Origin: Promethearchaeota archaeon
Lineage (GTDB): Archaea; Asgardarchaeota; Lokiarchaeia; Sigyniarchaeales; SOKP01
Direction: 5' to 3'
DNA length: 64,000 bases
NCBI GenBank assembly: GCA_019058445.1
Contig: JAHPZA010000006.1
Location: forward strand, 1,212,220-1,276,219
Part shown: positions 57,593 to 64,000 of the stretch, piece after piece
How positions within the stretch are numbered: position 1 is the stretch's first letter
Layout of the letters: each line of letters opens with the position of its first letter
The notes under the pieces: generated by a model
What the model was told of the DNA's origin: nothing
The model's input: only the letters and a program-made list of their open reading frames with translations
The model's database searches: none
Program-made: the position numbers and the translations under genes

Positions 57593-59959
57593 TTGAATAA
57601 GGTTTCAATGAATATTATTTTTAACAGTTCTATATCCTTTTTAATGTTTTTAATTTTAAGTATCAGTTGTTCAATACTTAATATTATTTTTTATATATAT
57701 AAGAAAAAGGGGTATTCTTTAGATACCTTTAAAAAGGGCATATATGTTAATTTTATTTTTTCATTATTTTTTCTTATTATAGGATTACCATTTTTTATTT
57801 TAAATAATGGAAATGTGATCACAGAATCTTTCGAAGTATTTCTTTTGCCGATATTAATATATAATTTATCAGTCTTTCTTTTCGTGTTTTCTATTATCAT
57901 CTTCTTGTTGCCGCAGCTTGAGGAGGAAATGAATAGGATTAATTTAGAAATACCATCTTATCATCTTGCAAACAATGGATCAATTAAAATTGGAAAGATT
58001 ATGAAAGGTAATCACAAAAAATACAATTTTTATTTATCAATCAAGGATCTTGAGAAACATATGTTTATTTGTGGGGCAACAGGAACTGGAAAGAGTAATT
58101 TTCTCCAAAATTTTTTGATTAATTTTACACAACATCAAAATATTCCATTCTTTTTAGTTGAGTTTAAGGGAGAATATCATTTTTTACAGAAAAAGATAGA
58201 TAATCTCTTAATATTATGGCCAGGAGAGAACTTTTCTATTAATATATTTGATCCTGAAAATTCAAATCCTCATATCCATGCTGAAAGAATTTTTGATATC
58301 TTAAAAAGTGGACAATTTCTTGATGAAAACGCAGAATATTCTCCCCAAATGCAGAAAGTTTTGGTTGAAATTTTAACTAAGGTATGTAAAAACAAAAAAT
58401 CTCAAAGTTGGAAAGGTTTTGAATATTTTTGTAAAAATTATCTTGAAGAAAATCTAAATAATATTCCCATGTTAAGGCAAACTTTAATAAGCATTAAGAA
58501 TAGGATTAGAAGATTTTCAGAGGGACCTTTAAAGGCATTATTTGAAAAAAAAATGGAGTATAAAGTTAAAACCCTGTTTAAAAGAAATGTGATTTTAGAT
58601 TTAAGTTCCATTATTCGCTTGGGAGGTGAAAAAGAGGATGCCTTGTTCTTTTTAAATATGATTTTCAAATATTTATGGGATAAAAACCTGACAAAAGGTG
58701 CTTTCAAATATAATGGAATCAAACATATCACAATCGTAGAGGATGCGCAATACTTTGCCCCACAAGATTTAGTTAAGAAGAGCAAGCTAACAACCTATTT
58801 AGAAGACATCGCTTTATTACAAAGAGGTACTGGTGAATGTTTAATTGCTCTTGCTACACGCCCGGATATCAGTAGAGACATATTAGCTAATGTGGGGGTT
58901 CTGTTAACCTTGAAAAACCATATTGAAAAAGATTTGATATGTGAATTGCTTAATCTTGATGTAGAAAAAAAAAATTATTTATCAATTTTGGAGGAAGGTC
59001 AAGGTATTATTCGCATAAATTCCATAAAAGATCCCTTTTTATTATGGGTACCCTATATTGAACGTGAGTCTATAAATGTTTCAGAAATTAAGAGTAAAAA
59101 TGAACAAAATTTAAGAAATAAAAAATCAATAGATAATTCACTCAAAAGCGATGAAATGAATAAATTTTATATAAGAATTAGACAAATTGTACATTATTTC
59201 ACGAATTTTTGGAAAAAATTACGACGTAAGCCAAGAAAAAAAAGAGAAAAAGAATTGGATCAAAATTTAAAATTTAAAGGTGATGTTAAAATTTCAGTAA
59301 AAAACAATAATAATAAGGAAAGAAAGATCTTACCCTACTCTATGGTTGAGGAAATCCAAGGAGATAAAGAAAATGAGATAAATCGCACAATTTTGCACTA
59401 TAAGAATCTCCTATCGAGATATCGGGATATAATAAATTTATATAAAAAAGAAGTCTATGATGAAATGGCTATTAAGAGCATTGAATTGGTAAATTTTATA
59501 TTAGATAGAATATCTCAACAAATTGGTATAAAATACAATGATATTAATAACTTTTTAGAAAGAATTACAGAAATGAAACTTAAAAATAAATTTATTCTTT
59601 ACAATGATATAGAGCTATTAGCAACCCTTCTAGAGAATAGGATTGGAGCAAATTATCAATTTAAACCAGAGATATTATCTTCAATTTTATCAACCATTCA
59701 GAAAATTATGGAGAAAATAAGATCTCATACTGAAAAGAATGAAGAAAATAATTTTTCAAACGCCTATGATGAATTTAAATCAAATTCAAAAAAAATAAAA
59801 AAGAATCCCCCTTCTAAGAATAAAGTCTTAGAGAACAATTCCATTTACTCTGAGTTAAGCTTGAATACTTTAACAGAATTAGATAATTTTTCTAAGTTAG
59901 AATTATATATTGATGAATTAACGAATTGTTTAAAATCTAAAAAGAAAACAAATAAATAA
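57593..59959 (+). CDS. membrane-anchored HerA/VirB4-like (DUF87) ATPase
   Basis: Three N-terminal TM segments, HMFICGATGTGKS, FKGEY, VEDAQ, LATRP. Confidence 0.8.
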   Translation: MNKVSMNIIFNSSISFLMFLILSISCSILNIIFYIYKKKGYSLDTFKKGIYVNFIFSLFFLIIGLPFFILNNGNVITESFEVFLLPILIYNLSVFLFVFSIIIFLLPQLEEEMNRINLEIPSYHLANNGSIKIGKIMKGNHKKYNFYLSIKDLEKHMFICGATGTGKSNFLQNFLINFTQHQNIPFFLVEFKGEYHFLQKKIDNLLILWPGENFSINIFDPENSNPHIHAERIFDILKSGQFLDENAEYSPQMQKVLVEILTKVCKNKKSQSWKGFEYFCKNYLEENLNNIPMLRQTLISIKNRIRRFSEGPLKALFEKKMEYKVKTLFKRNVILDLSSIIRLGGEKEDALFFLNMIFKYLWDKNLTKGAFKYNGIKHITIVEDAQYFAPQDLVKKSKLTTYLEDIALLQRGTGECLIALATRPDISRDILANVGVLLTLKNHIEKDLICELLNLDVEKKNYLSILEEGQGIIRINSIKDPFLLWVPYIERESINVSEIKSKNEQNLRNKKSIDNSLKSDEMNKFYIRIRQIVHYFTNFWKKLRRKPRKKREKELDQNLKFKGDVKISVKNNNNKERKILPYSMVEEIQGDKENEINRTILHYKNLLSRYRDIINLYKKEVYDEMAIKSIELVNFILDRISQQIGIKYNDINNFLERITEMKLKNKFILYNDIELLATLLENRIGANYQFKPEILSSILSTIQKIMEKIRSHTEKNEENNFSNAYDEFKSNSKKIKKNPPSKNKVLENNSIYSELSLNTLTELDNFSKLELYIDELTNCLKSKKKTNK

Positions 59960-60080: not shown

Positions 60081-61323
60081 ATGAGTAATATAATTATAGG
60101 TATTGTCGGAAAGCCAAGTTTTGGTAAAATCTTGTATCAAAAGGCTTAGTTCTGGCAAATCTACATTTTTAAATGCAGCTTGTTTAACAGATGTAAAGGT
60201 TAGTGAGCTACCCTTTACCACTATAGATGCAAATAAAGGTGTCGCTTATGCTAAAGTAGATTGTGTTTGTAAAGAATTAGATGTCGAAGACAATCCTAAA
60301 AACTCAATATGTATTAATGGAACTCGTTTCATTCCGTTAAATCTTCTAGACGTAGCAGGATTAGTTCCGGATGCTCATAAAGGTAAAGGACTCGGCAATA
60401 AATTTTTGAATGACCTTAGCAGAGCGGATGTGTTATTACACGTAGTTGATATGACAGGAGCTCTTGATAAATCAGGCAATAGAATAGCGGATGGTGAAAA
60501 TGATCCATATGAGGATATTTTATTTTTAGAAGATGAGATAAATTATTGGGTTAAAGATATTCTTGAGAGAGAGGATTGGGATAAATTTACAAGGTCTTCA
60601 CAAGATAAAAAAAAAATGATTGTAGATTTGCATAAAAGACTTTCTGGATTGAAAATAACTCAGCAGCATGTGGTAGCAGCTTTAAAAGATGCTGCCTTAG
60701 ACGATAAATTACCTTCACAATGGACAGATGATGAGATGCTTACATTCTCGAAAACCATACGAAAAATTTCAAAACCCATTCTCATTATCGCAAATAAAAT
60801 TGATAAACAGATAAGCAGTAAGAATTTAGATAGGCTAAAGGAGAAATATAAAGGACCAATTATACCATGTAGCGCATTAGCGGAATATGTTTTAAGAAAA
60901 TATAATGAGGACAAGGCAATCAATTATCTTCCCGGATCTTCTGATTTCAAAGTTATAGACAAAGATAAGTTAAAACCTAATGAATTGGAAACATTAAACA
61001 AAATAAAAATAGAGATATTGGATAAATTTGATGAAACTGGAGTTCAAAAAACTTTAAATTATGCAATATTTAAGATCTCAGATCTTATTGCGGTATATCC
61101 TGTGTCAGATATTACACATTATACAGATAAAGATAATAATGTTTTACCTGATGTATTCCTTGTAAAAAAGGGGACTTTATTGAGGGACTTTGTAAGAGAT
61201 AAAATACATAGCGACTTAGCTAAGCATTTCATTCATGGAATTGATGCGAGAACCAAAAAGAGGCTAGGGGAAAATTATGAATTGCAGAATAATGATATTA
61301 TAAAAATAGTATCTGCGATTTAA
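60081..61323 (+). CDS. ychF: YchF/Ola1-family ATPase, two exons (60081-60117 and 60149-61323), 403 aa after splicing
   Basis: Spliced N-terminus MSNIIIGIVGKPSSGKSTFLNA restores the P-loop; PFTTI, DVAGLVPDAH.GKGLGNKFL, ANKID, TGS-like C-terminus. Confidence 0.93.
60118..60148 (+). other. 31-nt BHB-type pre-mRNA intron in ychF
   Basis: Outer helix GTCGGAA/TTCTGGC, bulge AAG, central helix AGCC/GGCT, bulge TAG, inner helix TTTTGGTA/TATCAAAA. Confidence 0.88.
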
Positions 61324-61524: not shown

Positions 61525-61697
61525 ATTAAGTAAGATTTAAGATTTAATAATTAAAAAAATTTCTTATATTCCATTGTACAACAACTTAAAATCGATTTTT
61601 TAAGAAAATCTCAATCAAATTCATATAATTTCTATGAATACAAACTAATAGTGAAACTCTTTTAAAAATTTTATTAAAAAAAGAGGGGATTTAAAAA

Positions 61698-61798
61698 TGG
61701 ACCTGACGGGACTTGAACCCGTGACCTCTTGAGTGCAATTCTTGCATGATCCAGAATATGAATCTGTGTCAAGCGATCTTCCGCTGATCTACAGGCCC
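61698..61798 (-). tRNA. tRNA-Ala(UGC) with a 29-nt intron at 32/33 (61739-61767)
   Basis: G3:U70 acceptor stem GGGCCTG/CAGGTCC; spliced loop CTTGCAC; BHB central helix CTTG/CAAG. Confidence 0.9.
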
Positions 61799-62065: not shown

Positions 62066-62761
62066 TTATTGAATTATAGCTTTTTCTATTTTTAAAGCTC
62101 CATATCCCAGATAAAAAAACGTTGCCAAGAATACATATACAGCAATTTTTTGAATAGTGGCTTGAAATATTAAGCTAGTTATTGTATTTGGATTGTATTT
62201 TAATAGAATAACAATTATAAGATTAAAGAGATAAAGAACAAAATAATAAACGAGAATAGTCGCATATTTGTTTGGGTATGAATCCTTTAAAAAAATCATT
62301 ATAGCTAGTACTAATAATACCATAACACCTGTAGTAGTATATATAATCCCCAATAAAAGATGTGTAGAACCGTATAAATCCCAAGGAGTAATCATGGCAG
62401 CAACCCAGAAAGTTGATGTAATAAATCCAAAGAAAATTAATACTATCCGTAATTTTTTCTCCAGGTCTGTGTCTTTAAAAAAGTGGGAAATACCAATAGT
62501 GAATGGAGTTATAGAAACCGCTAAAATTGTACCAGAGATTATATAAAGAAAACACGATATTAAGTTAGATTTTCCAGAAATTGACTTCGTACGCCCCAAA
62601 TCACTAAAAAAATTTGTCCAAAAGGAATAATTTGATGCATTAGGATCTAATTTAGTGCCTCCTGTGTAAAAAATCATTGCAATAGTAGAAAGAATGACAA
62701 ATTGAATAATTGCAATTATTAAGAACATAAACGATAATTCATTCCAATTTTTTTCATTCAT
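62066..62761 (-). CDS. DUF998-like multi-pass membrane protein
   Basis: YSFWTNFFSDLG motif and about six TM segments. Confidence 0.7.
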   Translation of the reverse strand: MNEKNWNELSFMFLIIAIIQFVILSTIAMIFYTGGTKLDPNASNYSFWTNFFSDLGRTKSISGKSNLISCFLYIISGTILAVSITPFTIGISHFFKDTDLEKKLRIVLIFFGFITSTFWVAAMITPWDLYGSTHLLLGIIYTTTGVMVLLVLAIMIFLKDSYPNKYATILVYYFVLYLFNLIIVILLKYNPNTITSLIFQATIQKIAVYVFLATFFYLGYGALKIEKAIIQ

Positions 62762-63711: not shown

Positions 63712-63950
63712 TTAGATGTACATTTTTTGTTTAAATGATATTAACAATTATATAGGATGTAGATATTTAAAGAAAAACATAGTTAGGTGTTATAAATAAA
63801 TTCATTTTTTGTTGATTTTATGAAGAGAGTATAGATTGATCTGGAGTTCCATTAAAAATAATTTAAATCTAAAAATTAAAATAAAAAAGTGCGAAAGTTA
63901 ATTAAGAACCCTCTCAATTAAGTAGATTCCTCGCGGTAAATAATAATAAA

Positions 63951-64000
<50 letters not shown>

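Follow-up and report, generated by a model that had tools for sequence, protein, structure and literature searches.

How does an archaeal cell make a GTPase whose gene is broken inside its own nucleotide-binding loop? The question is raised by a YchF-related GTPase gene at positions 60081 to 61323 of a 64,000-nt stretch of DNA (the window, to which coordinates refer unless another contig is given), which lies on contig JAHPZA010000006.1 of the Promethearchaeota archaeon assembly GCA_019058445.1. The source genome, termed G000, is assembled to 4.6 Mb, 92.6% complete, with a GC content of about 29-31%. The contig titles of its near relatives are those of Promethearchaeota/Promethearchaeia metagenome-assembled genomes (MAGs), in agreement with the Asgard-type host that had been guessed in an earlier sequence-only reading of the window; the organism is a Promethearchaeia (Loki-type) MAG. 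The answer put forward here is that positions 60118-60148 very probably constitute a 31-nt bulge-helix-bulge (BHB) intron in the GTPase mRNA, which would be removed by the tRNA-splicing endonuclease EndA and its exons joined by RtcB. The motif, the exact junction, the covariation, the selection on the gene and the presence or absence of the insert among relatives can be read from the DNA, and it is from these that cleavage, ligation and the enzymes responsible are deduced.

The interrupted reading frame and its predicted fold

The frame that opens at ATG 60081 translates to MSNIIIGIVGKPSFGKILYQKA and ends at TAG 60147-60149, and the remainder of the protein (SGKSTFLNA...) is found in the frame of an open reading frame (ORF) beginning at TTG 60103. 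Removal of the 31 nt at 60118-60148 yields GGA AAG CCA AGT TCT GGC AAA TCT, which translates as GKPSSGKS, and the excised gene is a 404-aa open frame that begins MSNIIIGIVGKPSSGKST. Exon 1 (60081..60117, + strand) is 37 nt long, comprises the ATG, 11 codons and the first base of a Ser codon, and encodes MSNIIIGIVGKP plus the A of AGT. The predicted intron (60118..60148, +), GTTTTGGTAAAATCTTGTATCAAAAGGCTTA, shifts the frame, so that the exon 1 frame runs into TAG 60147-60149, which itself spans the 3' splice site. Exon 2 (60149..61323, +) carries the rest of the GTPase from (A)GT TCT GGC AAA TCT to a TAA stop, and the predicted exon-exon junction reads AAGCCAA followed by GTTCTGGC.

The RNA of positions 60095-60166 was folded with RNAfold, with 200 shuffles as control. 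The canonical hBHBh' structure is the minimum-energy fold at -22 kcal/mol (z = -4.75), and none of the 200 shuffles is as stable. Its geometry is 3-4-3, with a 4-bp helix, AGCC/GGCT, between the 3-nt bulges AAG and TAG on opposite strands. The 5' strand of this central helix H, AGCC (60112..60115, +), belongs to exon 1, and the 3' strand with which it pairs, GGCT (60143..60146, +), belongs to the intron. The outer exon-exon helix h has its 5' strand at 60103..60111 (+) and its 3' strand, TTCTGGCAA, in exon 2 at 60150..60158 (+); a 7-bp core that pairs GTCGGAA (60105-60111) with TTCTGGC (60150-60156) can be extended to 9 bp. The intron hairpin h' (60119..60142, +) has an 8-bp stem formed by TTTTGGTA (60119-60126) and TATCAAAA (60135-60142) around an 8-nt loop (60127-60134). 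Both flanking helices, at 7-9 bp for h and 8 bp for h', exceed the 2-3 bp minimum for an EndA substrate. By the EndA rule, which places each cut between the second and third bases of a 3-nt bulge, cleavage is predicted at 60117/60118 within the bulge AAG (60116..60118, +) and at 60148/60149 within the bulge TAG (60147..60149, +).

The frame, the helices, the bulges, the 31-nt excision and the restored GKPSSGKS are all found at the coordinates that the sequence-only reading had given them. Its elements stand, and their order is restated: on the 5' strand the outer helix is followed by the central helix, the bulge AAG and the intron helix, which is the arrangement of the tRNA type, and on the 3' strand the bulge TAG separates the central helix from the outer one. 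The suspicion that gene callers had chosen a false TTG start (60103..60105, +) was likewise justified, as public protein collections contain the very 406-aa product of this TTG start, a protein without strand beta-1 and without the P-loop's first half. Among orthologues the TTG-frame ORF measures 393-409 aa with an upstream extension that varies, and the TTG start is not conserved.

Identity of the interrupted gene

Exon 2 contains the Pfam domains YGR210-like_G4, MMR_HSR1 and TGS. It matches the NCBIfam profile NF007171, 'YchF-related putative GTPase', with 482.5 bits against a cut-off of 387 and covers profile positions 14-396. An intronless orthologue covers positions 2-396, from which it follows that the positions missing from exon 2 are supplied by exon 1. 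Exon 1 corresponds to the first ~13 positions of the profile, which are absent from exon 2, and is kept in all intron-bearing orthologues. The TIGR00092 profile of the true YchF/OLA1 ATPase scores only 71.6 bits, below its cut-off of 279.2. Moreover, the G4 motif is NKID, the canonical NKxD of GTPases, whereas membership of the YchF/OLA1 ATPases calls for NxxE, a mark of ATP preference. Because of this motif the gene is, on sequence grounds, an Obg-like GTPase of the YGR210/PRK09602 type and not a YchF/OLA1 ATPase. The name ychF that had been given to it before therefore holds in so far as the protein is YchF-related and fails where it implies the YchF ATPase. An intact copy elsewhere in the genome had been named as a finding that would point to a pseudogene; G000, at its completeness of 92.6%, has only one copy of the gene.

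Distribution and history of the insert

A screen of 154 genomes of the order used an intronless orthologue as the query, after which the 5' ends were read. About 100 genomes encode an uninterrupted N-terminus of the form ...G(I/V)VGKPSSGKS(T)..., which is exactly the predicted spliced product. Interruption is limited to genus g1, to which the window belongs, to a single genome of genus g3 (G153) and to genus g8. Within g1 the intron is present in four of the six gene-bearing genomes (G000, G002, G006 and G008) and absent from the other two (G001 and G005), and G153 is interrupted at the same site as G000. All five genomes of g8 are interrupted at a second site 4 nt upstream (GGGAA/A...CCCTAA/ACC, with slashes at the borders). 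There the insert measures 44, 45 or 47 nt and is BHB-like: its 5' half is canonical, its 3' bulge is relaxed, with either 2 nt or 3 nt and a mismatch, and an AAA run at each border leaves the exact cut positions ambiguous (loci L018, L064-L068 and L082-L084).

Pattern scans over public genome and metagenome contigs (JGI/NCBI) added further carriers of the first site and brought the total to 11 distinct sequences, which form alignment A1. One sequencing run that matched all sampled words may be the source sample and was excluded as independent support. Inserts at the first site are 31 or 32 nt long, and at both sites the spliced junction and the deduced peptide are identical every time. Length changes that are not multiples of three combined with a constant product imply that the insert never reaches the ribosome. 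The same data bear on the idea that the 31 nt are an assembly or sequencing artefact and absent from the real DNA. This has only a negligible probability: nothing beyond the general risk that attaches to MAGs speaks for it, and against it the same site is interrupted in 11 distinct sequences from different MAGs and metagenome contigs, which are diverged and covary.

A maximum likelihood tree of 48 proteins recovers genus g1 with support of 100/97. Ten rows of the tree carry the intron, and among them, at a depth of several supported nodes, lie the intronless G001 and G005. This topology is most simply read as one precise loss within g1 at the predicted junction. A precise loss is the outcome that would be expected of recombination with a copy of the spliced mRNA and may thus mark, indirectly, the position at which the cell splices. 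G153 is placed in another clade among intronless genomes, and its intron is about two thirds identical to that of G006 (hand count in A1); this placement requires either several losses or a transfer. Alignment of the 5' ends across the order, a check that had been proposed on the strength of the window alone, hence gave both a patchy presence and absence and, in the 11 sequences, covarying pairs.

Database labels are at odds with gene content in two of the contigs encountered. WJKE01000155.1 (L072), which is binned as Candidatus Peregrinibacteria, has a Loki-type YchF-related gene with an intron and is probably mis-binned. JBHLLE010000480.1 (L074) is the G008 contig; it is labelled Hermodarchaeota and its gene nests within genus g1. 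A pattern hit in a Flavitalea contig was a chance match and was discarded.

Covariation and selection

Base pairing in A1 was compared with that in 500 shuffles and in registers where the partners had been slid by 1-3 columns. In the true register 97.8% of cells form standard pairs, as against 31-53% in the slid registers. Four pairs are changed on both sides, and not one of the 500 shuffles reaches the observed pairing or covariation score. The outer helix h is paired in 96% of cells and the intron hairpin h' in 98.9%, with three of the eight pairs of the latter changed on both sides. The second pair of the central helix is GC in five sequences, GU in four and AU in two, and never AC. Its exonic member is the synonymous third position of a Lys codon (AAG/AAA) in exon 1, and its intronic member belongs to the GGCT/GGTT with which the intron ends on its 3' side.

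The bulges vary in the parts that are predicted to be intronic. In the 5' bulge the third, intronic base is G, A or T and the first two, exonic bases are constant in the orthologues. In the 3' bulge the first two, intronic bases are TA, AG, AC, AA or CA, and the exonic G in third place never changes. Synonymous sites are constant in the 5' strand of the outer helix. Among eight carriers the third position does not vary in five of the seven helix-forming exon codons, compared with 13.5% of comparable codons gene-wide, a contrast that is indicative only as the sequences are related.

These features also decide how far translational bypass could account for the locus. According to this explanation ribosomes would hop or shift over the 31-nt hairpin and the RNA would not be cleaved at all. 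In G000 the gap does contain a hairpin and is bordered by AGT on both sides (60117-60119 and 60148-60150), and a hop from AGT to AGT would yield the same protein. The matched codons are, however, not conserved, since the 5' border has AAT in G153 and AAT or an ATT-type sequence in Ga0209536 against AGT at the 3' border, and the codon after the take-off site is TTT and not a stop. Conservation and covariation extend over the whole BHB geometry, of which hopping requires neither the 4-bp helix nor the outer helix between the exons. A simple frameshift would in turn leave some 10 extra residues inside the Walker A loop. Bypass is accordingly regarded as highly improbable, and excision of a BHB intron from the mRNA remains the preferred explanation.

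The protein itself is well preserved. Pairwise dN/dS (the ratio of nonsynonymous to synonymous substitution rates) between carriers is 0.07-0.09, with dS ranging from 0.6 to ~1.8 or saturated, and exon 2 is intact at 390-391 aa in every carrier with a whole gene. Judged by these values the gene is under strong purifying selection and has been functional with its insert over a long divergence. The broken frame of the unspliced gene, and the 406-aa TTG-start protein that has been called from it, could still be taken to mean that the locus is a pseudogene, that it carries an inert palindromic insertion or that the truncated product is the one in use. Any of these is most unlikely. The gene has no second copy and combines its low dN/dS with synonymous sites near saturation, exon 1 and its ATG are conserved, and the pairing covaries. 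No other copy of the insert turned up as a repeat family. A protein begun at TTG would have an extension of variable length and would be deprived of beta-1 and half of the P-loop. Splicing of a functional gene fits the same observations better than decay or truncation.

Splicing machinery and a neighbouring tRNA intron

In the mechanism proposed for the primary transcript, GUCGGAA-AGCC of exon 1 would pair with the intron 3' end, GGCU, and with UUCUGGC of exon 2, and the intron's own 8-bp hairpin would stack on the other side of the central helix. An (alpha-beta)2 EndA, the form assigned to this order, would cut both 3-nt bulges behind their second base, RtcB would join the exons and probably circularise the intron, and the spliced mRNA would encode an intact Walker A motif, GKPSSGKS.

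Asgard EndA is an (alpha-beta)2 enzyme and has a broad specificity (PMC5829648). The relatives of G000 generally have two EndA genes, which fits this published composition; those of G006 are at C100:31106 and C84:30615. RtcB is encoded in G000 at C1:114713. The sole EndA gene found in that genome (C9:770313-770918, locus L032:1219-1827) looks from its sequence like the structural beta subunit.

A tRNA-Ala(UGC) gene lies 370 nt downstream of the GTPase gene (61695-61798, -) and has a 29-nt BHB intron at 32/33, with a helix CUUG/CAAG and the bulges ACA and AAU. Applying the cut rule to it gives a perfect 74-nt cloverleaf. The gene is missed by ARAGORN without intron mode, and Rfam gives only a weak tmRNA-like match. 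ARAGORN intron calls were dropped as a broader control of the cut rule, as none matched the motif list and many are unreliable in G000. The 5' end of rtcB has a BHB-like hairpin (C1:114504-114642) that might have hinted at autoregulation and was rejected as a chance match; the N-terminus of RtcB is intact without any excision.

Several observations weigh against splicing of the GTPase mRNA. The EndA of G000 has Phe and Ser at the positions of the catalytic Tyr and His of M. jannaschii EndA, and a catalytic alpha subunit was not found in the G000 assembly by Pfam search or by tblastn with the alpha of a congener. Frame-restoring BHB motifs are not in excess over shifted-cut controls in either a strict or a relaxed genome-wide scan. 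In addition, a search of listed sequencing runs for this DNA brought up no RNA run, and splicing is deduced from the comparison of DNA.

The missing alpha subunit most likely reflects an assembly gap, because the assembly is 92.6% complete and alpha is present in eight of nine congeners, among them the carriers G002, G006 and G008. A congener's alpha retains the Tyr, His and Lys. As for the scans, the strict search of both strands of G000 returned 9786 raw motifs and the relaxed one 16269, and neither has a length peak at 30-32 nt. The motif at 60118-60148 ranks about seventh of the 9786 by pairing score, and those ranked higher are AT-only palindromes or repeats. Such structural statistics are uninformative because chance hairpins in a genome of 31% GC swamp the few real introns, and the case consequently rests on homology and covariation rather than on motif counts. 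The core of the sequence-only reading, namely that a BHB intron in an Asgard mRNA is removed by the tRNA-splicing machinery, appears to be borne out at the level of DNA by the junction, the covariation, the length variation, the selection and the nested loss.

The surroundings of the gene have features of their own. Directly upstream (57593-59959, +) lies a gene for a 788-aa HerA/FtsK-like ATPase (DUF87, FtsK_SpoIIIE) whose N-terminal part contains a membrane region. A 16S rRNA gene, of which the 3' end is inside the window (63950-64000, -), continues beyond its edge, and the gap of ~2 kb between it and the tRNA-Ala gene holds a 231-aa membrane-protein ORF (62066-62761, -), which would make an unusual spacer if this is an rRNA operon.

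Other interrupted genes in the genome

The structural scans served only for picking candidates, which were afterwards tested by homology. The genome-wide search for BHB motifs that had been suggested as a check thus had a mixed outcome: it brought no statistical excess, and it did surface candidates, of which those in cooS and in a gene for an EF-2-like protein were verified by homology. Together with the YchF-related GTPase gene this makes three verified interrupted protein genes in G000.

The cooS gene (CO dehydrogenase) has a 32-nt canonical BHB intron at C6:396807-396838 (-). Exon 1 closes with positions 3-457 of the Pfam Prismane domain and exon 2 opens with positions 458-512, so that the two parts abut at the junction. 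The EF-2-like GTPase gene (locus L085) has a 30-nt BHB intron at C10:684116-684145 (-) after QLQMTD. Its intronless orthologues encode QLQMTDSDDEEQERGITI in 750-aa frames, equal to 61 + 689, and congeners have exactly the predicted junction. In G006 a related 30-nt insert is located 6 nt downstream in a repeated xCAGAT context, a shift that suggests intron sliding at the sequence level. Another EF-2 paralogue of G000, encoded at C9:663790, shares 46% identity.

Two further candidate introns of 29-30 nt fall in genes for an opine dehydrogenase (C4:159314-159342, +), where excision restores ILGGGN/GGH, and for a longin-type small GTPase (C9:219418-219447, +). Excision gives a sensible motif in both, and in both cases only the exon-2 domains were checked. 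The view taken beforehand that an mRNA case would be a rarity is not upheld for this genome, where the introns of cooS and the EF-2-like gene keep that of the YchF-related GTPase from being isolated.

A regulatory gate, or a neutral or selfish insertion?

The coding region runs for 37 nt before the intron begins, and an unspliced mRNA can yield only a 22-aa peptide. Splicing would therefore have to precede or compete with translation, and it might be asked whether the intron, while real, is also a regulatory gate that ties GTPase output to the capacity of EndA and RtcB in the manner of HAC1/XBP1. The sequence-only reading had drawn this analogy, for which the results give no support. Members of a single genus differ in whether they have the intron, and others like it occur in unrelated metabolic and housekeeping genes. 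Close congeners do without it, cooS and the EF-2-like gene contain comparable ones, the unspliced peptide is not conserved and nothing ties splicing to a signal. A gate of this kind is considered very unlikely, and an intron with no evident regulation is preferred. Because of its presence and absence within a genus and its spread over unrelated genes, the intron pattern looks more like that of neutral or selfish insertions than like a dedicated switch. The findings argue for the persistence of such introns where codons can supply half of the motif.

In a broader form, splicing of mRNA by the tRNA machinery would be routine in this Lokiarchaeial lineage. BHB mini-introns of ~30 nt would have spread into many protein genes including those of translation factors, where they would be gained, slide by a few bases and be precisely lost on genus-level time scales, and would last only at sites whose exon codons can provide one half of the BHB. 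This generalisation is held to be somewhat more likely than not, with markedly more reserve than the intron itself. If it is true, an Asgard archaeon has protein genes that are interrupted and must splice their mRNAs without a spliceosome.

After cbf5 of Crenarchaeota, the GTPase provides a second gene family with such an intron, shows that protein genes can be interrupted in those archaea that are closest to eukaryotes, and implies that the pair of tRNA endonuclease and RtcB acts on mRNAs there. Since gene callers give such genes false starts, truncations and 'frameshifts', the proteomes and metabolic reconstructions of Asgard MAGs would be systematically wrong at these sites. The introns furthermore offer a tractable system for the gain, loss and movement of introns in coding sequence, for the relation of RNA structure to codon choice and for that of splicing to coupled transcription and translation.

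Comparison with known splicing systems

The closest precedent is cbf5, whose pre-mRNA intron has reportedly been found in Crenarchaeota such as Aeropyrum, the Sulfolobales and the Desulfurococcales (Watanabe 2002; Yoshinari 2006). The cbf5 pre-mRNA intron of Crenarchaeota was also treated later (Yokobori 2009, PMC2738675), and in the literature searched cbf5 has for over twenty years been the only archaeal protein-coding sequence with confirmed splicing of a BHB intron (PMC2738675, PMC5829648). That literature, which leaves out most subscription journals, yielded nothing on BHB introns in the mRNAs of Asgard archaea and only work on cbf5 and on tRNA or rRNA; a 2026 preprint deals with Asgard tRNA introns only. 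Like the intron of the GTPase gene, that of cbf5 is a BHB-type intron in an archaeal coding sequence and belongs to lineages whose EndA is hetero-oligomeric; it is removed by the tRNA splicing endonuclease, as is predicted for the GTPase intron. In both cases the distribution is patchy, with gains and losses among relatives, and the genes are annotated with a frameshift or a wrong start. The two differ in gene, site and phylum, the present one being from mesophilic Asgard archaea (Promethearchaeia), and the insert is here much shorter, uniform at 31-32 nt and one of several in the genome. Splicing of cbf5 was demonstrated by experiment, whereas that of the GTPase mRNA is predicted.

The splicing of HAC1, XBP1 and bZIP60 in eukaryotes is stress-regulated and depends on the nuclease Ire1, which recognises twin 7-nt stem-loops. 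It resembles the mechanism proposed for the GTPase in being a non-spliceosomal, protein-only cleavage of mRNA that is directed by a small structured motif, after which a tRNA ligase (RtcB in metazoa) joins the ends and the frame is changed. In contrast, the GTPase intron has a BHB in place of the stem-loops, and no regulation is evident.

Gene 60 of phage T4 also has a short gap with a hairpin in its coding sequence, and the identical border codons in G000 add to the likeness. Here, however, the orthologues do not keep the matched codons, the take-off site is not followed by a stop, and conservation falls on the features of an endonuclease substrate.

Such substrates are best known from archaeal tRNA and rRNA, in which BHB introns, spliced by the EndA/RtcB pathway, have reportedly been surveyed (Marck and Grosjean 2003). 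The GTPase intron differs from them in that its host RNA is an mRNA, in that the exon parts of the motif are under the constraint of both protein and structure, and in that the unspliced RNA can be translated. The hBHBh' geometry (3-4-3) and the cut positions are nevertheless identical to those of the tRNA and rRNA introns, including the one in the neighbouring tRNA-Ala.

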